From: Candidatus Moraniibacteriota bacterium
GTDB taxonomy: Bacteria; Patescibacteriota; Minisyncoccia; Moranbacterales; GCA-2747515
Direction: 5' to 3'
Assembly: GCA_018401135.1 (NCBI GenBank)
Contig: JAGYLL010000001.1
Span: 1 to 59,181, forward strand
Length of the DNA stretch: 59,181 bases
Shown in pieces: positions 4,236 through 53,028 of this stretch. The position numbers and the translations under genes are program-made. Positions within the stretch are counted from its first letter, which is position 1, and the number at the start of each line of letters is the position of its first letter. The notes below the pieces were generated by a model. The model saw nothing but the letters and a program-made list of their open reading frames with translations. It was not told the DNA's origin and did not search any database.

Positions 4236-4333
4236 AAACATAACCAAAGAAAGTTGCTACAAGGGTATTTTTCTAAAGAATGCTTATTTTAAGGTGTAAA
4301 TGAAAATGAAGAGAGGAATGTGTCGGACAGCAG

Positions 4334-4362
4334 TTGACAAAATTAGATAGATATGCTATGTT
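4334..4362 (+). promoter_or_regulatory. sigma70-like promoter
   Basis: TTGACA (4334-4339), 17-nt spacer, TATGTT (4357-4362), 30 nt upstream of ATG 4393. Confidence 0.45.
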
Positions 4363-4392
4363 TGTACGTTATCGAAATTAAATATATTCTTT

Positions 4393-5133
4393 ATGTATTA
4401 TTCTTTGTGGCTTTCACGTATTCGTCAAAATATCGTAAGTACTATTTTCGTAGCACTGTCTTTTGGTGCTATTGCTTTTTTGGGGCTTATATTTATCCCT
4501 GATGCGTATAAAGTGCGAACAGATTTCCTTATTATTCAGCAATCTGCTTCTTCGCAAGATTTCTACACCCTTTCCAAAAGCGCCGAATATTCAGGAAACG
4601 TTCTTAAAGAGGGAATCTTGAGCGATCTCTTTCTTCGAGAAGCCTCTCAAAAAGGATACTTTTCTTCACAGAATTTTTCGGGAAGTGAAAAAGATCGTCT
4701 TAAACAATGGAGGGAAACGGTTGAAGTTCGTCAAAGGACGTCAGCTGGAATCTTGGAAGTTGTTATTTCTGAAGATGATAGTAAACAAGCACTTGGTATA
4801 GCCAAAGCAATTTCTGAAGTTCTTATCGAAAAGAATACTCTTTTTCGATCAGGAAATCCTGATGATCTTTCTATACGACTTATTTCAGGACCGATTGTAG
4901 AACAAAATCCTAGTATTTCTCAATTACTCTTTGGAGTTCTCGGTGGTATGGTCTTGGGATTTTTTCTTTCTCTCTCTTGGATATGGTACAGAGAAGAATG
5001 GGATCATACGGATTATAGAGTTTTTTCTTCTGGAGGAGAAAAGAAAGAAAATTTTCAAGAAGCAAAACTCGTGTATGAAAATAGTTTGGGAGGAAACGCT
5101 CACTGGTTTGGAATGACCAATCGTTTGGAGTAG
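4393..5133 (+). CDS. Wzz-like polysaccharide chain-length determinant (two-TM, large external loop)
   Basis: 246 aa; TM helices at both ends (IVSTIFVALSFGAIAFLGLIFI ; LLFGVLGGMVLGFFLSLSWIW) around a soluble domain; other O-antigen/glycosyltransferase genes lie nearby. Confidence 0.5.
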   Translation: MYYSLWLSRIRQNIVSTIFVALSFGAIAFLGLIFIPDAYKVRTDFLIIQQSASSQDFYTLSKSAEYSGNVLKEGILSDLFLREASQKGYFSSQNFSGSEKDRLKQWRETVEVRQRTSAGILEVVISEDDSKQALGIAKAISEVLIEKNTLFRSGNPDDLSIRLISGPIVEQNPSISQLLFGVLGGMVLGFFLSLSWIWYREEWDHTDYRVFSSGGEKKENFQEAKLVYENSLGGNAHWFGMTNRLE

Positions 5134-5264
5134 TTTGTATTTTTATATACAAAAGTGTTTCCACATACGAGAGAGAATCTCTTCTCTCTCCTAGTGGGAT
5201 CGCTTAGAAAAAAAGAGATCCTCGTTATTTGAAAATTTTCAATCATCAAAAAAAGGAGAACAAG

Positions 5265-5665
5265 ATGTTTAGGTTCATCTTGGCGCTCGTGACACTCGCA
5301 AGTGTCGCGGGATGTGCTCCAATGACTCCTCGTGAGTCGTTGGGCAGGGTGGTGAGTCGATGGAACGACTCGCAAATGCCACCACGTTTATCGCACCTCC
5401 GCCGATTGATTCGGCCAGGGGATATGAAATAACTTTGCCACAGGAAGTGGCAAAAGAAGTTGTGTGTCGGGAATTTTCGACGCTTGACAAAGAGCGTGTG
5501 GAGGATTTGCCGAAAGGCATTTCGCGCACGTGTAGGAGGACAAGAGATTTCCCTCTCATCCGCAAGGAGAAAAAGGGGTATGTTTTTGTTGCTCATCCCA
5601 TTACAAGTGTCGAAATTTTTCTGCCAAAGGTGTCGCATTTACGATTCCAACAACAAAGGAGTTAA
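5265..5665 (+). pseudogene. lipoprotein gene, frame-broken (or carrying a sequencing indel)
   Basis: AAGGAG-type SD, then MFRFILALVTLASVAGC (lipobox VAGC). This frame stops at 5432, while a 100-codon ORF continues in another frame from ~5336 to 5665. Confidence 0.4.
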
Positions 5666-5969
5666 GTCCTGAATTGAGGGGACTGTACGCCACGCTTGGG
5701 GGAGAGTTCCTGTTCATATCTGGTGAAACTTCCCAGAGACGGGGAAAAGACTTTCTGGAGAAGAAACTCTCCAAAGCCGTTCAAATCCCTCACTCTGTCT
5801 CATGGCAGGAGCGGGGGAGCAGTTTCGGATTGTCGATTTCACGTCTGATATTCCGACCGGTGATGTTGGGACCTGTTGGTCTCTTGCCGAAGGCATATCA
5901 AGCGGTATGCACTTTAAGGCAAAAACCCTGAATTTTGGAGCAACTGATGGGATTCGTCCCAAGGAGGTA

Positions 5970-6197
5970 ATGATGCGCACTAACGCGCTGTTTGGCATCA
6001 TCATGGGGCTCGTCCTCGGTGATGGATATTTCCTCCCGCCACCTCGGCAGGGAATGGAATATGTCGTCCAATCGGGCGATACGCTTTCAAGATCGCCAAG
6101 AAGTACCAGGGTGTTTCGTGGAAGGAAATTTGTGACAACAACCGTTTGTCTAACTGTGATCGCATCAAGGTTGGACAAAGTTGTCATCGCACCCTGA
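5970..6197 (+). pseudogene. small TM + LysM protein with the LysM domain split between two frames
   Basis: aaggagg SD, then MMRTNALFGIIMGLVLG...YVVQSGDTL in one frame, FKIAKKYQGVSWKEICDNNRLSNCDRIKVGQ in the next frame, then ..VVIAP* back in the first frame. Confidence 0.55.
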
Positions 6198-6940
6198 TGT
6201 TCGGGGCAGAAGATTGTTCCTAAGCATCAGATTGCTGATCGGGGGTGACTTGTTCGCTTGTTAAAAACCTCTCCACTGTCACGTCTCCGAAAAGGTTCGT
6301 GCGTGGAAGCGCGGGTGCTGACCCTCTCTCTCGGTCTGCATGCGGGAAAGAGTGGCACCGTGCTGATGAGCTCTGGCTCACTGGCACAGTCTGGATCGTC
6401 TTGCTCGCTTCTGGGCTTTGAGTTCGAAATTGAGCAGGTTCGGCAAGACCTCGTTTCGGCAAACGTAACCTGTTGCGCGTCCTGTCGGCTATACCTGGGA
6501 AGGGCATGGCGATGGGTCGGGTAACGGGGTCAAAACCCAGAATGCCACTGGCGACTCTGTTGGTTTGGGCTTGCCCAAGTCATAACGGTAAGCAGGTCGA
6601 CATCGCGATGCGCGGAAACGTAGCGGGAACGAAGTGACCACTCCCACACCTCCTCCGCCCAAAAACCGAAGAAGCTATCGCGTGCGAGGCTGTCGGTTCA
6701 GCATGGACGCAGATGGGAGAGCGTGTGAGAGCGATCACCTGTTTTAGCTGTCTCTTTCCTATTGGAAAAGGTTGGAAAGTCGGCCCGTCGATTGGCGCCA
6801 AAGGTGCTCGCTTCTCCAACGGCAGCTGTGGAAGTGGGAAATTCTTTCTGGCGCTGGTATCGAAGGTCCGGTTCTCTGGAGACTGATGCAGTCGAATCGT
6901 TGTTCCGTAGGACAGGGTTCGACTCCGGTTATTCCAAGGG

Positions 6941-7648
6941 ATGGATGGTCCAGAAAATGAAGGCGACAGGACTAGATCTGAAAATCGCACTTCAGCTCTG
7001 AACGGTTTCAAATTCCGAAAAAACTGGTGTCACGGTGCGGTTTATGCCGTGGGTGGATGTCCGCTCACTGGCAACAATGCCGTTTTTGTGGCAGGGGAAA
7101 TCAGGTCTGGAGAGGAGCGTGGTCGTAAGTTGGTCGTGGGAGCAATCCTTCGACTGGAAGTAGATCGGGTTGACTGGAATGTCAAGCCTGAATTTACTCT
7201 TGGCATTTGGAATATCTCCGATGTCCAAGATCCGGTTGGGGGTAAAATCCTTGCAGGAATCGCGACTAAGGATGATGTCTGGAGAATTGGTGCGGGCGTG
7301 CAGTTCCCTGACCCCCATTTCATCGTTGAGGTGGAGTGGAATGCAGGGTTGGGTTGGCTCCGTGCTAACTCAAGCATTGCCAAAACTGCGCTCGTCAAAG
7401 ACTCGGGATCTTCGGAAACCTATCTGGGCGTGAAAGCGAAAGCTGTTGCTCCCAAGGCCAAGAAGGCTCCCGTAACGCAAACCATCGCACAGAAGGAGAG
7501 TAAGTCTGTTTCGTCCTCGTCCTCGCCATTTGGTTGGGCTGGGGATGCACAGAAAACTTCACTTCGCTCTTCTGGTGGTGAGAAATTGGCATCAGTTTCT
7601 TCTTCGGGAGGGGTTGATAAGGCTTTCGGATTGTTTGCCGGAGGCTAA
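6941..7648 (+). CDS. hypothetical GC-rich ORF (alternating beta-strand-like pattern, Ser/Lys-rich tail); 5' end uncertain
   Basis: 235-aa ORF ending at the GC drop (stop 7646-7648). Protein-like open frames upstream (6484-6960) suggest a longer, interrupted gene. Confidence 0.35.
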   Translation: MDGPENEGDRTRSENRTSALNGFKFRKNWCHGAVYAVGGCPLTGNNAVFVAGEIRSGEERGRKLVVGAILRLEVDRVDWNVKPEFTLGIWNISDVQDPVGGKILAGIATKDDVWRIGAGVQFPDPHFIVEVEWNAGLGWLRANSSIAKTALVKDSGSSETYLGVKAKAVAPKAKKAPVTQTIAQKESKSVSSSSSPFGWAGDAQKTSLRSSGGEKLASVSSSGGVDKAFGLFAGG

Positions 7649-7783
7649 TGGAAAAATCTTTTGATGATTGAAATTGTGTTCTTTGTAAGGATATAGAGAA
7701 AAAAGGGAAAGAAGGTATACCTTTCCGCTTTGAGAAATGAATCTCAAAGAAAATCCGAGAAAAGTCTCGGTAGTGCAATCTTA

Positions 7784-7812
7784 TTGACAGAAATGTCAAA
7801 AGGTGCTATAAT
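7784..7812 (+). promoter_or_regulatory. consensus sigma70 promoter inside the island spacer
   Basis: TTGACA (7784-7789), exactly 17 nt, TATAAT (7807-7812). Confidence 0.6.
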
Positions 7813-7816
7813 GTAT

Positions 7817-7878
7817 GTTTCGGGGTGGATGAGGGCTTTGCTCGAGCAAACCTTTACCTCCCGAAACATCATTTTTTT
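7817..7878 (+). terminator. long hairpin + T7 tract immediately downstream of the promoter (short sRNA or attenuator)
   Basis: gtttcggg (7817-7824) pairs with cccgaaac (7860-7867); inner stem tttgc/gcaaa; followed by ttttttt (7872-7878). Confidence 0.5.
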
Positions 7879-8032
7879 CTTCTTTCTTTGTAGTAATGAA
7901 GAGAGAAATTTGTTTGAGAGATTGTTGGATACATATAGGGATATGTGTTTCCATTGTCTTTCGAAAAGACATAAAAAGGTACAAGGAGTTTTTTGAAAAT
8001 TTTTTTGGGGAAAAACACCCCAGGAGTCGAAG

Positions 8033-8467
8033 ATGAAAACGATCGACCATGATTACAAAGACCTGGAAATCTTGGAGACGCCGACCCACGCAATTTTCAC
8101 GATGGTGATGATGATGCTCAGCACGATCATCATTCTTGTGTTGGCACTCGTCGCTACCCCGGCCTATGCCGGCAAGTACGACGGCACGTCCTGGTCGGCG
8201 TCGTCCCAAAATGTTCAGGTTATTCCTTGGGACCCCGCTCAGTGCGAGCTCTGTCGCGCGGAAAACGGCAGACCGGGAATGACCGAATGTGGTCCGCCGT
8301 CGGCGATGCAGTCTGGCGTCCCTTATGCCTGCTATTGCGGAATTGTAGGAAATAAGAATGTTTTCTGTGAGGCCGGATCCGCTCCCGGAACGACCATGGT
8401 TGGACCGGGTGGGTCTGTTGGGTCGTTCACCGCCCAGTCGGATGATTACTGGACCGTGAAGCAATAA
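8033..8467 (+). CDS. membrane-anchored/secreted Cys-rich protein, GC3-rich codon usage
   Basis: aggag SD; 144 aa; TM/signal segment IFTMVMMMLSTIIILVLALVATPAYA; 6 Cys in the C-terminal domain; codons gac/ctg/acg/ccg/acc/cac are unlike the rest of the window. Confidence 0.6.
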   Translation: MKTIDHDYKDLEILETPTHAIFTMVMMMLSTIIILVLALVATPAYAGKYDGTSWSASSQNVQVIPWDPAQCELCRAENGRPGMTECGPPSAMQSGVPYACYCGIVGNKNVFCEAGSAPGTTMVGPGGSVGSFTAQSDDYWTVKQ

Positions 8468-8496
8468 GTCTTCATTACCAGATCATCGTCCGCGAG

Positions 8497-8576
8497 CCGT
8501 CGGAGAATCGAGAAGAATTTTCTTTTGGTAACAACCAAACAGAGAAACTCTTCCTCGTATTCTCCGGCGGTTTTTT
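8497..8576 (+). terminator. structured 3' element ending in a T-tract
   Basis: ccgtcggagaat (8497-8508) pairs with attctccggcgg (8559-8570, one G-U), enclosing small hairpins (ttggt/accaa), then tttttt (8571-8576). Confidence 0.45.
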
Positions 8577-8596
8577 ATTTTGCAAAAAAATGATAG

Positions 8597-8636
8597 AAAA
8601 AATGCTCCCGAAACGTGTGGGAGCATTTTTATTTTT
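8597..8636. terminator. bidirectional terminator between the island and htpX
   Basis: aatgctccc / gggagcatt stem flanked by an A-run and a T-run. Confidence 0.65.
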
Positions 8637-8649
8637 ACGGAACATCTTT

Positions 8650-9543
8650 TTACTGCATTTCAAGAGCTTTGATACGATCTTTAAGAGGGGGATGACTGGA
8701 AAAGAGAGAAAGGAAGGGAGAAGGCTTGTCAGATATTTTCATCGTAGCAAACGCTTTTCCTCGAGTATCTGCGAGTTGATTTTGGAGGAGTTCCAATTTT
8801 TGCAAGGCTTGTATCATTTTTGCTTTTCCGAGGAGTTTAGCACTTCCTGTATCAGCACGAAATTCTCTTTTTCGAGAAAAAGCCATAACGACAGTACTTG
8901 CCAATATTCCAAAAAGAATTTCAAAGACTATTGAGGTGAGTGTGTAGGCTAGTGTACCGATACCATCTTCTCTATCTTTACTGAGAAAACTTTGTACAGC
9001 ATAGGCGGCTATCCGTGCAAAGAATATGACGAAGGTATTTACTACTCCTTGTATAAGGGTGAGTGTCACCATATCACCATTGGCGACGTGAGAAATTTCG
9101 TGTCCAAGCACTGCTTCGATTTCTTCTTTTTCCATTGCGTTGAGAAGTCCCGAAGATACAGCTACGAGAGCATTGTTTTTGTTCCACCCTGTAGCAAAGG
9201 CATTGGCTTCTGGAGAATCATATATACCCACTTCAGGCATACCGATAGAGGCTTGTTGTGCCAGAGATTGAACGGTTTGGAAAACAAACTGCTCATCGGC
9301 ACTGCGAGGTTGCTGTATGATTTGTATATTGAAGGCTTTTTTTGCCATCCACTTGGAGATGAAGAGGGATATAAATGATCCTGTAAAACCAAAGAGCGCT
9401 GAGAAAATCAAAAGACTTTGATAGTTGAGACCTGAGGCAGAAAGATACGGCGCTACATTGAATACACTCAAAACGATGGAGATAACCGCTATCACCGCTA
9501 TATTGGTAAGCAGAAAGAAAAAAACCCGTTTAAATAAAGACAT
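8650..9543 (-). CDS. htpX: zinc metalloprotease HtpX (M48 family)
   Basis: 297 aa; N-terminal TM helices; HEISHVANGD zinc motif. Confidence 0.9.
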   Translation of the reverse strand: MSLFKRVFFFLLTNIAVIAVISIVLSVFNVAPYLSASGLNYQSLLIFSALFGFTGSFISLFISKWMAKKAFNIQIIQQPRSADEQFVFQTVQSLAQQASIGMPEVGIYDSPEANAFATGWNKNNALVAVSSGLLNAMEKEEIEAVLGHEISHVANGDMVTLTLIQGVVNTFVIFFARIAAYAVQSFLSKDREDGIGTLAYTLTSIVFEILFGILASTVVMAFSRKREFRADTGSAKLLGKAKMIQALQKLELLQNQLADTRGKAFATMKISDKPSPFLSLFSSHPPLKDRIKALEMQ

Positions 9544-9631
9544 AAGAATAAAATTATTGTTTATTACGACTCTCTCTGAAACACGAAAACATTTTTCTGT
9601 GACCCATTAAGAGAGTACAATCAACTATATA

Positions 9632-11029
9632 CTATTCTTTCTTTTTGTGGAAGAGGGGATGAGTAGTGTACGTTCCCAAAGCACCTCCAATCATTGCCCA
9701 AAGAATCCATTGCGCCATAGTCGATCGCAAAACATGATCCGTAAAACTGAGGAGGAGGAGGGAGGTGATGAGTGCCCAGAGGAGAAGAAATATATCAGAT
9801 GCTTGTTGGGTATGTTCGTCGTGAGGATTGCGAGAAGAAAAAAATCGTTTTCTTTTCCAAAGAATCCAAAGAGGAATGAGTGAGAAAAAAAGAAAAACCC
9901 CAAGTCCAATATACCCACCCTCTACGAAAGATCGAACGAATTCGCTATGAGGATCATTGACGACAAAACGTAGTCCTCGGAGATCTTCGGCAACCTGTTC
10001 AAAGGTATTGAGTCCATAGCCAAAAACTTCTCGATTTTCTTGAAATGTTTTAGAAATAGTGTCATTCCAGAGATTGACACGCCATACGAAAGAGCTTGAG
10101 GGAGAGAAATTAAAGGCATCATAGACACGATCTTGTATAGTAGGAGAGGTGAAGAAAAGAACTAATGGCGTGATAATAAGAAAAGGAATGGCTTTGGGAT
10201 ATTTGAAAAGTGTGAAGAGTCCTACAAAAACAAAGAATGTTGCCCACGAGGCTCGTGCATAGGTAAAGAGTAGGGTAAGAAAAAGAATTCCCAGGGGGAA
10301 TAAAAGAAGGAGTCTTCGCTTTTTGTCAGGAAGAAGAATAAAGAGAGACAAAACTGCTCCCATAGCTATGATAAGATAGAGAGCGAAAATATTGGGATGA
10401 GCAAATGTCCCATACATACGCGGGACAGAAAAAGCAACATCAGTATAGCCGATACCAAAGAAGAATTGCATCCATCCTGTAAGTACAGGAACGAGCGTAG
10501 AAAGGGTGATAGCAAGGAGAAGTCGAATGAATTGTTTTTTACTTGTTATGAGATAGTAAGAAAAAGCAAATATGAAAAATATAGAGAAAAGGCGGAAGAG
10601 TTCATAGAGAGTTTTTGAAACATTTTCACTATACAAAAGAGTGAGCGATCCCCAAAGAAGGAGTGTGGTGAAAACGAGAGAAAGAGGCATTTTCCAAAAC
10701 GTTTTTCTTTTTTGTATAAAAAAAAGTATTCCAAGACAAACGACCATAGCACCAAATCCCTGAGCGATGCTCACGGAAAAATTTTCAGTAAAAGGAATGA
10801 TAAATGTTGTCGTTTCAGAAATGCGATCGAGACTTGGGCGTATGATAAGAAGTGCTTCGAGAAGGATAATGGGAGAGAGAAAGAAGAGTAGGGGAAAAAG
10901 AGGGCTTATTCCTACGATGAGTGCATTGATAAGAGGAAAGCCTGCTCCTAATGCTCCTATAAAAAGAAGAGAACATAGGGCAATACCGAGAGAAAGAGCA
11001 CCAAAAGCGTAAGAAGGACGAGAAGTCAT
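9632..11029 (-). CDS. O-antigen ligase/polymerase-like membrane protein (Wzy_C type)
   Basis: 465 aa, polytopic; family-like loop GYGLNTFEQV...DPHSEFVRSFVEGGYIGLG. Confidence 0.7.
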   Translation of the reverse strand: MTSRPSYAFGALSLGIALCSLLFIGALGAGFPLINALIVGISPLFPLLFFLSPIILLEALLIIRPSLDRISETTTFIIPFTENFSVSIAQGFGAMVVCLGILFFIQKRKTFWKMPLSLVFTTLLLWGSLTLLYSENVSKTLYELFRLFSIFFIFAFSYYLITSKKQFIRLLLAITLSTLVPVLTGWMQFFFGIGYTDVAFSVPRMYGTFAHPNIFALYLIIAMGAVLSLFILLPDKKRRLLLLFPLGILFLTLLFTYARASWATFFVFVGLFTLFKYPKAIPFLIITPLVLFFTSPTIQDRVYDAFNFSPSSSFVWRVNLWNDTISKTFQENREVFGYGLNTFEQVAEDLRGLRFVVNDPHSEFVRSFVEGGYIGLGVFLFFSLIPLWILWKRKRFFSSRNPHDEHTQQASDIFLLLWALITSLLLLSFTDHVLRSTMAQWILWAMIGGALGTYTTHPLFHKKKE

Positions 11030-11049
11030 AAATGTGGTATATTAAAAAT

Positions 11050-12267
11050 ATGAAAATACTTCTTATTAATAAATTTCACTATGTGCGAGGAGGTGCTGAA
11101 CGTGCTTATTTTGACACGGCACATATTTTGAAGCAAAACGGACACGAAGTTGCCTTTTTCTCGATGCACCATCCAGAAAACAAAGAAACTCCTTGGGAAA
11201 AATATTTTATAAAAAACATTGACTACCATAAACAGTATAGCATACAAAAACGTTTTGAGCTTGCCTGTTCTATGATATGGAATTGCCAAGCACAACATCG
11301 ACTCGAATCACTTCTCAAAGCATTTCGTCCAGATATAGCACACCTTCATAATATTTATCATCAACTTTCTCCTTCGATCATCGCTACACTCAAAAAACAG
11401 GGCATCCCTACGGTTATGACGCTTCATGACTACAAATGCATTTCTCCCAACTATTCTTTGTATGTGCGAGGAAAGATTTGGGAAGGGGGAGCTTTGCAAT
11501 GTATCAAAGACCGATGCGTTCGCGATGCTTTTCTTCCAAGTGCTATTTGCTCTTTCGAACATATATTCCATTCTCTTTTGGGAACATATGCTAAAGTAGA
11601 TATGTTCTTTGCTCCAAGCATTTTCCTCCAGAAAAAGTTTGAAGAGAGAGGATTTAAAGGAATTATACGACATATTGATCAACCGATCATTCTCCCAGAA
11701 ATTCGCGAAGAAGGTGTGCGCGAAAAGCACCTTCTCTATGCCGGACGACTTTCTCGAGAAAAAGGAGTGGAAACACTTCTTTCTGCTCTCGTATATCTTC
11801 CGGACTGCACATTAAGAATCGCAGGAGAGGGTCCAGAGAAAAATACTCTCTACGCACTAGCTCATGAACTTGGTATTATAGATCGAGTACGTTTCCTCGG
11901 TCATCTTTCTTCTGAGAAACTCAAAAGAGAAATTTCATCCGCTCGAGCGATTGTTGTTCCTTCTGTGTGGTATGAAAATATGCCCTATGCGCTTATAGAG
12001 GCGCTTGGCGCTGGTCAAGTTGTAATTGCTTCACGCATAGGGGGGATGACGGAAAAAATTACCCATGGAAAAAATGGTTTTCTTTTCGAGGCCGGCAAAG
12101 TGAATGATTTGGTCTCTGTGATTTCCAAACTCGATCAATATGATCTAGGGAGTATCCGAAAAAGTGCAAGAGAAAGTGTGTCTCACCTCACACCCAAACA
12201 ATATTACAAAAATCTCCTCGCTCTCTATCAAGAGGTTTTGAGAAAAAAGACTACTCCACGAAAATGA
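11050..12267 (+). CDS. glycosyltransferase family 4 (GT-B fold)
   Basis: ORF from 11032, likely start MKILLINKF (11050); C-terminal E-x7-E region ENMPYALIEALGAGQVVIASRIGGMTEKITHGKNGFLFE. Confidence 0.85.
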   Translation: MKILLINKFHYVRGGAERAYFDTAHILKQNGHEVAFFSMHHPENKETPWEKYFIKNIDYHKQYSIQKRFELACSMIWNCQAQHRLESLLKAFRPDIAHLHNIYHQLSPSIIATLKKQGIPTVMTLHDYKCISPNYSLYVRGKIWEGGALQCIKDRCVRDAFLPSAICSFEHIFHSLLGTYAKVDMFFAPSIFLQKKFEERGFKGIIRHIDQPIILPEIREEGVREKHLLYAGRLSREKGVETLLSALVYLPDCTLRIAGEGPEKNTLYALAHELGIIDRVRFLGHLSSEKLKREISSARAIVVPSVWYENMPYALIEALGAGQVVIASRIGGMTEKITHGKNGFLFEAGKVNDLVSVISKLDQYDLGSIRKSARESVSHLTPKQYYKNLLALYQEVLRKKTTPRK

Positions 12268-12283
12268 AAAAAAGAATATCTCT

Positions 12284-12321
12284 ATGAAAGAAGAATATAT
12301 TTTAGAACAACATATCGAAAA
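12284..12321 (+). repeat. orphan duplicate of the ligA 5' end
   Basis: 36/38 identical to 12953-12990 (ligA codons 1-13); opens a 30-codon dead-end ORF. Confidence 0.85.
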
Positions 12322-12373
12322 TTTCAAAGGGGTGCTATATAAAAAAGTTTCTGATAAAAGTATAACTAGAGAA

Positions 12374-12412
12374 TAAAAAAAACGAACCCCGAAACGCAGA
12401 GTGCGCTCGGGG
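12374..12412 (-). terminator. Rho-independent terminator of the GC-enriched minus-strand ORF
   Basis: minus strand: ccccga...tcgggg stem followed by tttttttt. Confidence 0.65.
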
Positions 12413-12443
12413 CAGGATGTCCGCATTATACGGACAAAAGCGA

Positions 12444-12797
12444 TCAGGCGGGTCCGTCGTAGTCACCGGCATCGACGCCGTGATCAGAGGATGAATTGTT
12501 TGTCGTCTTTTGTTCCACAGGCTCATCTTCCGTAGGCGGGGGATTGTCCAGCTCAGGAAAGATCGCTGATATGGTTTTGAATATAAGGAGACGACGAGTT
12601 TCGGTTTCGGGGTTTTGTGCTGGGATCAATTCGGAGGTTTCTTTAAAAACCTTTTTATTGACAGTCATTTCACCGCTCCCAAAGACCACGATGGGATGTC
12701 CCTCAATAGTGACATCTATGACGCGTCCCGTCGGCATAGCGCTGTGCATTCCAAGGAATGTCACGTAATCACCCTTTGCGAACGTAATTTTCGCCAT
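12444..12797 (-). CDS. hypothetical protein, GC-enriched cassette gene
   Basis: 117-aa ORF MAKITFAKGDYVTFLG...; 37/60 G+C at 12421-12480; has its own terminator and a TTGACA-17-TTTACT box (12916-12888, minus strand). Confidence 0.55.
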   Translation of the reverse strand: MAKITFAKGDYVTFLGMHSAMPTGRVIDVTIEGHPIVVFGSGEMTVNKKVFKETSELIPAQNPETETRRLLIFKTISAIFPELDNPPPTEDEPVEQKTTNNSSSDHGVDAGDYDGPA

Positions 12798-12892
12798 GTT
12801 TTTTATCCGCCGTTTCTTAGACTGGCACGGATCTCTGTTTTTTGAAAGGATTTTCGTTGGTCGCCTATACTTCTTGTGCGACGTTTCAGTAA

Positions 12893-15073
<2,181 letters not shown>

Positions 15074-26863: not shown

Positions 26864-28054
26864 ATGGCAGAAAAATTTGATCGAACCAAACCCCATGTAA
26901 ACGTAGGAACTATAGGACACGTAGATCATGGAAAGACTACTCTTACAGCAGCTATTCTTCATGTATTGAGTCTTAAAGGACAAGCCAAAGCTCGAAAGGT
27001 AGAAGATATCGATAATGCTCCTGAAGAAAGAGAGCGCGGAATTACTATTGCAACAGCTCACTGCGAGTATGAATCTGAAAAGCGTCATTACGCTCATGTT
27101 GATTGCCCAGGACATGCTGACTATATCAAGAATATGATAACAGGTGCAGCTCAAATGGATGGAGCTATTTTAGTGGTGAGTGCTACTGATGGACCTATGC
27201 CTCAAACAAGAGAGCATATTCTCTTAGCTCGTCAAGTAGGTGTTCCTGAAATGGTTGTTTTTCTCAATAAAGTTGATATGGTTGATGATGCTGAATTGGT
27301 GGATCTTGTTGAAGCAGAGGTTCGTGAGCTTTTGAGTAAATATGAATTTGATGGTGACAATGCTATTATAGTGAGAGGAAGTGCTTTGAAGGCTTTAGGA
27401 TCAACAAAGGCTGAAGATGAAACAGCTAAGCCTATTTGGGATCTTATGAATGCACTCGATGCTAAAATTCCAGATCCTGTTCGTGATATGGAAAAACCAT
27501 TCCTTTTGCCTATTGAAGATATTTTTTCTATCGAAGGTCGTGGTACTGTTGTAACAGGAAGAATAGAACGAGGAGTTATTAATCTCAATGATGAAGTAGA
27601 AATTGTAGGTCTTCGTGATACACAAAAAACAGTAGTAACAGGAATTGAAATGTTTAATAAATCTCTTGATAGGGGAGAATGTGGAGATAACGCTGGTATT
27701 CTTATTCGAGGAATTAAAAAGGAAGATGTGGAGCGAGGACAGGTTCTTGCTAAGCCGAAGTCTATAACTCCTCATACAGAGTTTTCTACAGAAGTGTATA
27801 TTCTTAGCAAAGAAGAAGGTGGGCGACACACTCCTTTTTTCAAGGGATATAAGCCTCAATTTTATATTCGAACGACTGATGTAACAGGGGAAGTTATTTT
27901 ACCTGAAGGAACAGAAATGGTTATGCCTGGAGATACGGTTACCCTAGACGTTGCTCTTGGTGCTCCTGTTGCTATGGAAGAGGGTATGCGATTTGCTATT
28001 CGTGAAGGAGGAAGAACGGTTGGCGCTGGAGTGGTAACAAAAATTAAGAAATAA
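26864..28054 (+). CDS. tuf: elongation factor Tu
   Basis: 396 aa; [18 protein letters not shown] motifs. Confidence 0.98.
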
Positions 28055-50502: not shown

Positions 50503-50575
50503 GGGCGCATAGCTCAGTCGGTAGAGCAGTTGCCTTTTAAGCAAACGGTCGGGGGTTCGAATCCCTCTGCGCCCA
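50503..50575 (+). tRNA. tRNA-Lys (anticodon UUU)
   Basis: hand-folded cloverleaf: acceptor gggcgca/tgcgccc, anticodon loop cuUUUaa, T-arm ggggg-ttcgaat-ccctc; CCA not encoded. Confidence 0.9.
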
Positions 50576-50621
50576 CACTATTTCCTGAAACTTCCTTGGG
50601 ATTCGAAGGGTAGTATAAAAA
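50559..50621 (+). repeat. direct repeat copy 1 (last 17 nt of tRNA-Lys + 46 nt downstream)
   Basis: 63/63 identical to 50710-50772. Confidence 0.9.
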
Positions 50622-50642
50622 AGCAAACTGCTTTGCTTTTTT
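50617..50642 (+). terminator. Rho-independent terminator after tRNA-Lys
   Basis: aagcaaa / tttgctt 7-bp stem, loop ctgc, then T-run. Confidence 0.6.
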
Positions 50643-50709: not shown

Positions 50710-50772
50710 GAATCCCTCTGCGCCCACACTATTTCCTGAAACTTCCTTGGGATTCGAAGGGTAGTATAAAAA
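50710..50772 (+). repeat. direct repeat copy 2 (tRNA-Lys 3' fragment + downstream)
   Basis: identical to 50559-50621; similarity to the tRNA T-stem (cggggg) extends a few nt further upstream. Confidence 0.9.
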
Positions 50773-50775
50773 TAC

Positions 50776-50809
50776 AAAAAAAGGGATTTCATTATGAAAT
50801 CCCTTTTTT
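50776..50809. terminator. bidirectional terminator
   Basis: aagggatttca / tgaaatccctt 11-bp stem flanked by an A-run and a T-run; serves the tRNA region and the minus-strand gene ending at 50820. Confidence 0.7.
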
Positions 50810-52850: not shown

Positions 52851-52924
52851 TGGGGAATAGCCAAGTGGTAAGGCAACGGGTTCTGGTCCCGTGATCGGGG
52901 GTCCGAATCCCTCTTCCCCAGCCA
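52851..52924 (+). tRNA. tRNA-Gln (anticodon CUG)
   Basis: acceptor tggggaa/ttcccca, anticodon loop uuCUGgu, T-arm ggggg-tccgaat-ccctc, encoded CCA. Confidence 0.88.
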
Positions 52925-53028
52925 CGTCGTTCGCGAACGACGTGGCCAGCAAAAAACTGGTCACGTCCTTAGGTTTCCCTATACACGTCGTTTGCCAGCG
53001 ACGTGGTAAACAAAAAACTGGTCACGTC
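52922..53028 (+). repeat. two ~60-nt tandem GC-rich units built from cacgtcg / cgacgtg palindromes
   Basis: perfect 24-nt palindrome ccacgtcgttcgcgaacgacgtgg (52922-52945) overlaps the tRNA CCA; caaaaaactggtcacgtc occurs at 52950-52967 and 53011-53028. Confidence 0.8.

Follow-up and report, generated by a model that had tools for sequence, protein, structure and literature searches.

The contig analysed here, 59,181 nt of DNA from a Candidatus Moraniibacteriota bacterium (positions 1–59,181, referred to throughout as the window), carries at positions 5265–8576 a GC-rich island in which the reading frames are broken over 1.7 kb. Our analysis indicates that the island is probably a vertically inherited envelope module of the Moranbacteria, whose alleles have been replaced in this strain and whose frames have been broken by long-read error. 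The module comprises three genes, which encode a lipoprotein (gene A), a protein with a LysM domain and a predicted β-barrel (the LysM gene) and a small Cys-rich protein (gene C). What is new, on the strength of computation alone, is a conserved and unannotated envelope module of the Candidate Phyla Radiation (CPR) that combines a predicted barrel with a persistent GC anomaly. An earlier reading of the sequence by itself, the original prediction, had considered the island to be either a recent acquisition from a high-GC donor that is now decaying, or a strain-variable region assembled with indel errors or chimerically, and had also raised a structured RNA at 6200–6940.

The island is the only such compositional region in the window and lies far beyond chance. 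Per 60 nt, the G+C count is 17/60 at 5221–5280 and 36/60 at 5281–5340, then 23/60 at 7621–7680 and 37/60 at 8161–8220. Block 1 (5281–7648) has a GC content of 0.524 and block 2 (8033–8467) of 0.554, with 0.354 in the spacer between them (7649–8032), against 0.368 in the remaining window. Windows of 500 nt have a mean of 0.368 and a standard deviation of 0.033; none outside the island exceeds 0.48 and none within block 1 falls below 0.488. The GC content at third codon positions (GC3) of the island genes is 0.47–0.66, compared with a native mean of 0.264 (standard deviation 0.059). Block 1 has about 50–55% GC at each of the three codon positions and only weak periodicity, and tracing of the GC3 periodicity in this block gave a signal too weak for frame definition, whereas tblastn with orthologues defined the frames. 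A continuous reading frame is absent throughout block 1, and open reading frames (ORFs) of 40–230 codons stacked on both strands occur in the island only; the other ~56 kb of the contig is densely coding and its genes are intact. These observations bear out the description given in the original prediction, in which the 60-nt counts agree exactly with our recount, the stacked ORFs are confined to the island in the window-wide ORF listing, and no single frame runs through block 1. Its term "high-GC" stands only in part, since the composition is atypical for a window of 37% GC but, at about 50–55%, is not high in the actinobacterial sense.

The module was compared with eight related loci, four close ones, L083 (JGI Ga0645780_11448), L084 (GCA_010014565.1), L085 and L089 (both Logan contigs), and four distant ones, L086 (CP065011.1, a 1.19-Mb genome), L087, L090 and L091. 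The last of these was contributed by a metagenome scan with alignment A2, and the corresponding scan with A1 gave no confirmed locus. Across 4300–9600 the window is 89, 84 and 81% identical to L083, L085 and L084, respectively. All eight loci have genes A, LysM and C at this site, with order and orientation unchanged, down to ~29% amino-acid identity. A Wzz-like gene precedes the module in every locus that has a left flank (the short contig L090 ends before there), and the module adjoins htpX and/or Wzy_C and GT4 glycosyltransferase genes in all loci except L091, the Wzy_C/GT4 neighbours being common to L083–L087, L089 and L090. The synteny comparison, which the original prediction had called for at the interval between the wzz-like gene and htpX, places the GC-rich genes at the same position in all relatives examined. 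The original prediction had also held that finding these genes unbroken in related genomes, together with correction of the frames here by reads, would point to an ordinary, error-laden accessory locus, and all three genes are indeed intact in seven of the eight assemblies. The exception, L083, has single-base frameshifts at the window equivalents of 7285, 7438, 7633, 9980 and 11653, which leave a LysM-barrel protein of 494 aa instead of ~570, a split glycosyltransferase gene and a shortened Wzy; these are probably errors of that assembly.

Frameshift-tolerant searches, in the form of tblastn with the L085 orthologues, recovered all three genes from the island. The LysM protein matched across the window frames with an E-value of 4.5e-175, gene A was covered over three frames, and gene C aligned with its orthologue at 70% identity over 176 aa. 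These alignments also account for the ORF-poor stretch at 6200–6940, where a high GC content in an AT-rich genome and the lack of a long ORF had suggested a large non-coding RNA with a defined structure. Its codons can be aligned one by one with those of intact protein genes, it displays a protein-coding substitution pattern, and the part of the LysM protein for which it codes is the middle domain with the first strands of the barrel; no Rfam match was found at the gathering threshold or, beyond noise, at E-values up to 10; the probability of such an RNA is negligible. The same comparison speaks to an assembly chimera or contamination with the DNA of another organism, as might be suspected from the compositional jump, the broken ORFs, the origin from a metagenome bin and the end of a short-read contig at 8550. 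The flanks, the internal spacer and the gene order all match the loci of the relatives, the flanks and conserved spacers belong to one lineage-specific synteny block, and seven independent assemblies from this lineage carry orthologues of the GC-rich genes. We regard the chimeric option of the original prediction as highly improbable.

The frame breaks have a distinct pattern. In a five-way alignment, 47 indels of 1–4 nt are private to the window, 36 of them deletions (19 of 1 nt, 10 of 2 nt, 6 of 3 nt and 1 of 4 nt) and 11 insertions, and they are either not divisible by three or divisible by three yet disruptive; the relatives differ mutually by multiples of three only. Several fall in short homopolymers, such as GGGG to GGG at 5341 and AAAA to AAAAA at 5570. 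The broken segment begins 76 nt inside gene A and ends ~1.09 kb inside the LysM gene, so that its limits match neither gene nor GC boundaries, and alignments with the relatives revealed no private frameshifts in 7060–8467 or in the flanking genes. For the broken part, the ratio of nonsynonymous to synonymous substitution rates (dN/dS) in the ancestral frame is 0.16–0.27 versus every relative, indistinguishable from the 0.14–0.24 of the intact 3' part. The ratio of indels to private substitutions is ~0.35 (47:133), whereas neutral accumulation of 47 indels would, by our own estimate, take several hundred neutral substitutions. The only other cluster of indels relative to L083 lies in a second variable region at 12.3–12.7 kb.

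Run SRR14300308 has two Logan short-read contigs that match the flanks in the window with 100% identity, and one of the two corresponds to window 8550–10540 and stops at 8550, the island edge. The run belongs to the Lake Shunet project, in which metagenome-assembled genomes (MAGs) were built from Nanopore reads with metaFlye and Pilon, merged with MEGAHIT contigs by quickmerge and reassembled in Unicycler with the long-read contigs as bridges (PMC8382752). The project comprises 11 Patescibacteria MAGs, and its authors acknowledge numerous in-del errors in long-read assemblies (PMC8382752). The window would thus appear to be one of the Lake Shunet MAGs. Taken together, the frame breaks are most likely an uncorrected long-read consensus patch in a strain-variable locus, which is the most economical explanation because the indels are confined, dN/dS is retained, the ratio of indels to substitutions is high and the assembly is apparently of hybrid origin. 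Of the options in the original prediction, assembly with indel errors is the one that these data favour. The dense, deletion-biased indels of 1–3 nt, sharply bounded in a contig that is clean elsewhere, resemble the residual errors of other long-read and hybrid assemblies; unlike in those, the patch overlies a hypervariable locus, with true divergence and error superimposed.

True pseudogenisation would have gene A and the LysM/barrel gene inactivated by small indels and decaying, with gene C surviving. It would explain why the frames are broken at 47 sites relative to intact orthologues, why a premature stop truncates the window gene A by five codons and why the proportion of nonsynonymous differences (pN) in the window is somewhat above that of the relatives, and L083 too has three 1-nt frameshifts in its LysM gene. 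However, the ancestral-frame dN/dS of ~0.2 equals that of the intact 3' part and gives no sign of relaxed constraint, and 133 private substitutions are far fewer than the neutral expectation. The indels end abruptly in mid-gene at 7059, there are no larger deletions, and the promoter, Shine-Dalgarno sequence and terminators are untouched, whereas the deletion-biased profile and the apparent long-read hybrid origin fit sequencing error. The L083 contig, for its part, is error-prone throughout, its glycosyltransferase and Wzy genes being frameshifted as well. Pseudogenisation is in our judgement unlikely, although it is the most serious of the alternatives.

The three genes are genuine, conserved coding sequences on which purifying selection acts in the close relatives, with dN/dS values of 0.10–0.22 for gene A, 0.10–0.17 for LysM and 0.08–0.18 for gene C, similar to those of the wzz-like gene, and with lineage-private substitutions concentrated at third codon positions. 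A lack of constraint in the intact parts of the window copy, considered on codon-position counts of private substitutions, was dropped, as dN/dS indicates purifying selection there. Against L083, the synonymous divergence (dS) of the window rises from 0.012 for the wzz-like gene and 0.12 for htpX to 0.40–0.50 for A/LysM and 1.4 for gene C, and a mismatch profile in 100-nt steps displays the same pattern of a divergent island between near-identical flanks. The window alleles are roughly equidistant from the four close relatives. With alleles so far removed from those of a strain that is nearly the same elsewhere, the locus undergoes allelic replacement, as at surface-antigen loci, and the strain-variable region of the original prediction is upheld in this respect. 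As at O-antigen, capsule or porin loci replaced by recombination, near-identical flanks enclose alleles with dS of 0.4–1.4 under purifying selection, next to Wzy, Wzz and glycosyltransferase genes; unlike at those loci, the variable genes encode proteins and not sugar-pathway enzymes, and the composition deviates from that of the genome in every lineage. Mutagenesis of the type caused by diversity-generating retroelements was rejected, as no repeat of at least 30 nt involves the island and the substitutions are not adenine-specific, though no window-wide search for a reverse transcriptase was made.

The GC anomaly is shared by nearly all of the related loci. The module has a GC content of ~0.53 against a background of 0.37 in the window, 0.50–0.57 against ~0.37 in L083–L085, 0.48–0.54 against ~0.35 in L086, 0.60–0.67 against ~0.45 in L087 and 0.56–0.68 against ~0.38 in L090; only in L091 is it, at 0.48–0.49, below the background of ~0.52. 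The GC3 of the module is 0.41–0.75, versus 0.19–0.38 in the flanks of AT-rich hosts. Between deep lineages dS is saturated (>1.5 or not computable), so the silent sites have had ample time for equilibration. Polarised third-position rates per site in the module, determined over the four close relatives, are 0.118 for changes from A/T to G/C and 0.124 for the reverse, compared with 0.078 and 0.151 in the flanking genes, for which the equilibrium GC3 is 0.34. As the equilibrium GC3 of the module is ~0.49 and the observed value 0.53, the module is near its own compositional equilibrium. By these comparisons, the ~50–60% GC at all codon positions is old, maintained and independent of host GC, with no sign of recent import.

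A recent horizontal island from a GC-richer donor, not yet ameliorated, was the first option of the original prediction. Its expected atypical composition is present (0.52–0.55 versus 0.37), with GC and GC3 far above the genome values, sharp edges, and alleles that are foreign relative to L083. A recent island should, however, be absent from close relatives, whereas all eight loci have this module, at one site and beside the same neighbours, and it should drift toward host composition, whereas the module is still GC-rich after dS saturation. The item exchanged is an allele of a resident locus and not a new island, and the internal AT-rich spacers are native and conserved. A profile search of 1.84 billion representatives returned ~20 full-length family members and no large outside family, all other hits arising via LysM alone. 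No repeat pair brackets 5265–8576 and no mobility gene, integrase or att-like repeat flanks it, the neighbours being the wzz-like gene and htpX; no tRNA lies within 40 kb of the island (Rfam finds three elsewhere in the window), and neither blastn of the island against plasmids nor a viral contig scan gave a match. A recent acquisition that is now decaying is thus very unlikely, the genes being under purifying selection with GC3 near equilibrium.

What maintains a vertically inherited module at this composition was considered separately. Amino-acid composition accounts for GC1 and GC2, the values at first and second codon positions, but not for GC3. High expression is an unlikely cause, as a putative EF-Tu gene (26864–28054, assigned by size and position only) has a GC3 of 0.21, and an overlapping or antisense gene was rejected, as the antisense open stretches vary in place and length among orthologues. 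Candidates for the GC-rich silent sites are selection on mRNA or codons and GC-biased gene conversion at a recombination hotspot.

The LysM protein is the largest product of the module. Its layout is a signal-anchor, a LysM domain (~6060–6190), a linker, an α/β domain, a predicted β-barrel of ~12–14 strands, a helix and a Ser/Gly-rich tail. In the L085 orthologue, Pfam LysM is matched at residues 39–82 with an E-value of 1.5e-15; in the window the domain is split over two frames, in which Pfam identifies a 33-aa middle piece (E 2e-4) and the first 11 residues (E 0.08). The protein was modelled by AlphaFold2 from a 19-sequence alignment (model mc5c73a2bf47d), with a mean predicted local distance difference test score (pLDDT) of 71.6; a first model from 8 sequences was weaker. 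The hydrophobic N-terminus, with a helix at residues 12–26 of the model, is a putative signal sequence ahead of LysM. Residues 120–236 form an α/β domain (pLDDT ~80–88), residues 255–477 an all-β meander of long antiparallel strands (pLDDT ~90–96), and these are followed by a helix at 479–496 and a disordered Ser/Gly-rich tail of ~80 residues (pLDDT <50). DSSP assigns 13–14 strand segments to residues 255–477 of the predicted structure. Along the strands, hydrophobic residues alternate with polar ones, as can be read directly in sequences such as LVVGAILRLEMD and FIVEVEWN.

Foldseek against the PDB matched exclusively transmembrane β-barrels. The best matches were the translocators of Hbp, EspP, NalP and BrkA (E 1e-6 to 1e-4, TM-score to the target 0.45–0.56, probability 1.00), the intimin and invasin barrels (4e1s, 4e1t) were also found, with a probability of 1.00 and a TM-score of ~0.46, and FadL, OpcA, KdgM and others followed; the matched structures include barrels of 12 strands. 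The Pfam scan of the LysM protein returned LysM families only, with no intimin/invasin barrel family, and a PDB profile search returned LysM chains only. The C-terminal half of the protein is thus predicted from the model to be an outer-membrane-type β-barrel. The CPR have been placed within a monoderm clade (bioRxiv 10.1101/2021.05.31.446380), which makes such a barrel unexpected.

Among known systems, the protein shares with inverse autotransporters (type Ve: intimin, invasin, YeeJ) the order of signal, LysM, barrel (here predicted, with ~12 strands) and C-terminal extension. It differs in the missing sequence signature of the family, in the extra α/β domain (~120–236) that precedes the barrel, and in its "passenger", a disordered Ser/Gly-rich tail of 80–100 aa with no Ig-like or lectin domains. 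The host lineage, moreover, is to our knowledge considered monoderm, and we know of no β-barrel assembly (BAM) machinery in it. In view of the missing family signature and folded passenger, we would not class the modelled protein as an inverse autotransporter. Classical autotransporters (Hbp, EspP, NalP, BrkA) are the best structural matches, with E-values of 1.3e-6 to 1e-4 over ~250–275 aligned columns, but the identity is 8–13%, an autotransporter-type passenger is missing, and the helix follows the barrel whereas in autotransporters it precedes it. Wall-tethered proteins of the OmpA/Pal type likewise have a barrel covalently joined to a peptidoglycan-binding domain and a gene beside that of a lipoprotein, but here LysM replaces OmpA_C, the domain order differs and there is no homology.

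The lipobox, the LysM domain and the transmembrane segment with six Cys noted in the original prediction are all real, the LysM domain by Pfam as described above. The lipobox signal of gene A, MFRFILALVTLASVAGC, begins at 5265. The product of this gene is 229–258 aa in the relatives, where it is intact in all eight loci, and neither gene A nor gene C has a Pfam family match. The window gene C has a 12-nt in-frame insertion, two extra Cys and a GC3 of 0.66. Its dS is 1.1–1.6 against every relative with a dN/dS of 0.10–0.18, so that this allele, for all its divergence, is functional.

The AT-rich leaders and the spacer before gene C are better conserved in the alignment than the coding parts, and carry the native-looking signals that the original prediction had described, among them strong hairpins with U-runs that resemble terminators. 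Much of 7680–8030 is nearly invariant in five relatives, while the flanking genes differ by 10–30%. A promoter scan found a perfect 12/12 sigma-70 promoter in the spacer, TTGACA-17-TATAAT with TG, and the 55-nt hairpin with U7 behind it has a folding energy of −29.5 kcal/mol (z −5.7). An RNAalifold consensus of the spacer revealed no covariation, the sequence hardly varying. The promoter and hairpin at 7784–7882 could form a small RNA of ~65 nt, or an attenuator that precedes gene C.

Considering these data, we propose that a gap beyond the reach of short-read assembly and polishing was filled by a long-read contig or bridge, both steps failing because this is the very locus at which the strains in the sample diverge. 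The break of the short-read contig at 8550, at the end of the divergent tract, would fit co-existing alleles that fragment the short-read graph, and genes A and LysM would be intact in the actual organism. The deposited MAG likely carries two conserved genes annotated as fragments, and for curation the apparent "decaying foreign island" would be a confined stretch of long-read errors on top of a locus that varies naturally. In the cell, the LysM domain may tether the barrel to the cell wall, and the barrel, lipoprotein A and protein C may form an envelope-spanning or surface pore or anchor that, judging from the conserved neighbourhood, could be linked to Wzy-type surface-glycan assembly or to host-cell contact. 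Surface exposure would bring diversifying pressure, which would account for the turnover of alleles.

More broadly, and only tentatively since we hold it to be possible but doubtful, Moranbacteria and related CPR may own a wall-tethered protein with LysM followed by a barrel, together with A and C, all at ~50–60% GC including synonymous sites in genomes of 35–52% GC. If this is true, supposedly single-membrane bacteria either build an outer layer that contains barrels or insert a pore into a partner cell, and a gene-specific force, for which mRNA/codon selection and biased gene conversion are candidates, has acted on silent sites over deep evolutionary time. Envelope building and host contact in CPR are largely unknown, and the module would be a concrete, testable candidate for both; it would also be a clean natural test case for determinants of silent-site composition other than mutation bias in bacteria.

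Several points weigh against the account of an inherited module with replaced alleles and a long-read patch. The assembly artefact is deduced from the alignments and the apparent hybrid origin, and the Lake Shunet origin itself is drawn from two identical Logan contigs and not from an accession. The private substitutions in 5340–7060 are strand-asymmetric, with 69 pyrimidine versus 19 purine transitions; the slight excess of pN over that among the relatives could be caused by sequencing errors or by some relaxation of constraint; and 7060–8467 is equally divergent from L083 yet cleanly polished. The barrel is a prediction from the model, with no sequence-level link to any outer-membrane protein family, and a monoderm host would leave it with no evident membrane. 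The functional link to Wzy and Wzz is suggested by the conserved neighbourhood alone.

Table 1. Coordinates in the window of the module genes, their signals and the neighbouring genes.
Feature	Position	Strand	Remarks
Wzz-like (polysaccharide co-polymerase-like) gene	4393–5133	+	Weak Pfam Wzz match, E 0.026; left neighbour, native composition
Gene A, lipoprotein	5265–5931	+	Lipobox LASVAGC after Shine-Dalgarno AAGGAG; frame broken from 5341 on
Indel-dense segment	5341–7059		All 47 window-private frame-breaking indels; five-way alignment
LysM/β-barrel gene	5970–7648	+	558–631 aa in relatives; frame-broken up to 7059; ORF 6941–7648 is the intact 3' end
AT-rich spacer	7649–8032	+	Sigma-70 promoter 7784–7812, hairpin and U7 7815–7876, gene C leader
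Gene C, small N-terminally anchored Cys-rich protein	8033–8467	+	Transmembrane segment and 6 Cys; intact in window
Gene C terminator hairpin, ~80 nt, near-perfect, with U6	8494–8579	+	−43.3 kcal/mol, z −8.1; conserved in five relatives
Bidirectional htpX terminator	8598–8630		Directly after gene C terminator; terminator scan
htpX (M48 protease)	8650–9543	−	Pfam Peptidase_M48; right neighbour in most relatives, native composition
Wzy_C (O-antigen ligase/polymerase-like) and GT4 glycosyltransferase genes	within 9632–12267	− (Wzy_C), + (GT4)	Pfam Wzy_C 1.4e-12, Glycos_transf_1 7.7e-33

The neighbours of the module (Table 1) have their own features. The wzz-like gene has a GC3 of 0.26, and one member of its cluster bears the annotation "capsular polysaccharide biosynthesis protein". 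NCU41418.1, "protease HtpX [Candidatus Moranbacteria bacterium]", falls in the same 90%-identity cluster as the window HtpX; beyond this lineage, the closest species-representative homologues of HtpX are gammaproteobacterial (Legionella 64%, Marinomonas 60%), which hints at an old lateral origin of htpX in this CPR lineage. The terminator hairpin of gene C is longer than ordinary intrinsic terminators. In L086, an extra signal-anchored, Cys-containing ORF of 136 aa (12686–13096, native GC 0.42) lies between the C homologue and htpX and may be a diverged paralogue of gene C.

An exact look-up of the island ORFs in public assemblies gave no match, and a word-indexed protein search with ORF 6941–7648 (P0001) matched only itself despite orthologues in the database. 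The self-only match is a false negative, because a later search with the L085 orthologue found the family; the orthologues that the P0001 search missed match its C-terminal two-thirds closely in the tblastn alignment. "Orphan" outcomes of the word-indexed protein search can thus be false negatives.

Elsewhere in the window, 12283–12990 is the only other place at which the window and L083 differ by many indels, and so a second insert that is both variable and of unusual composition. The large ORF at 12953, a DNA ligase in the annotation of the relatives, has its first 38 nt duplicated 669 bp upstream in a direct repeat of 39 nt (95% identical), which brackets a GC-richer 117-aa ORF (12444–12797, minus strand) with a GC content of 0.49 and a GC3 of 0.51. 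A 69-nt repeat (97%) at 50559–50627 and 50710–50778 starts in the 3' end of tRNA-Lys (50503–50576) and resembles a small att-type duplication, and a tandem pair at 52914–53028 begins in the 3' end of tRNA-Gln.

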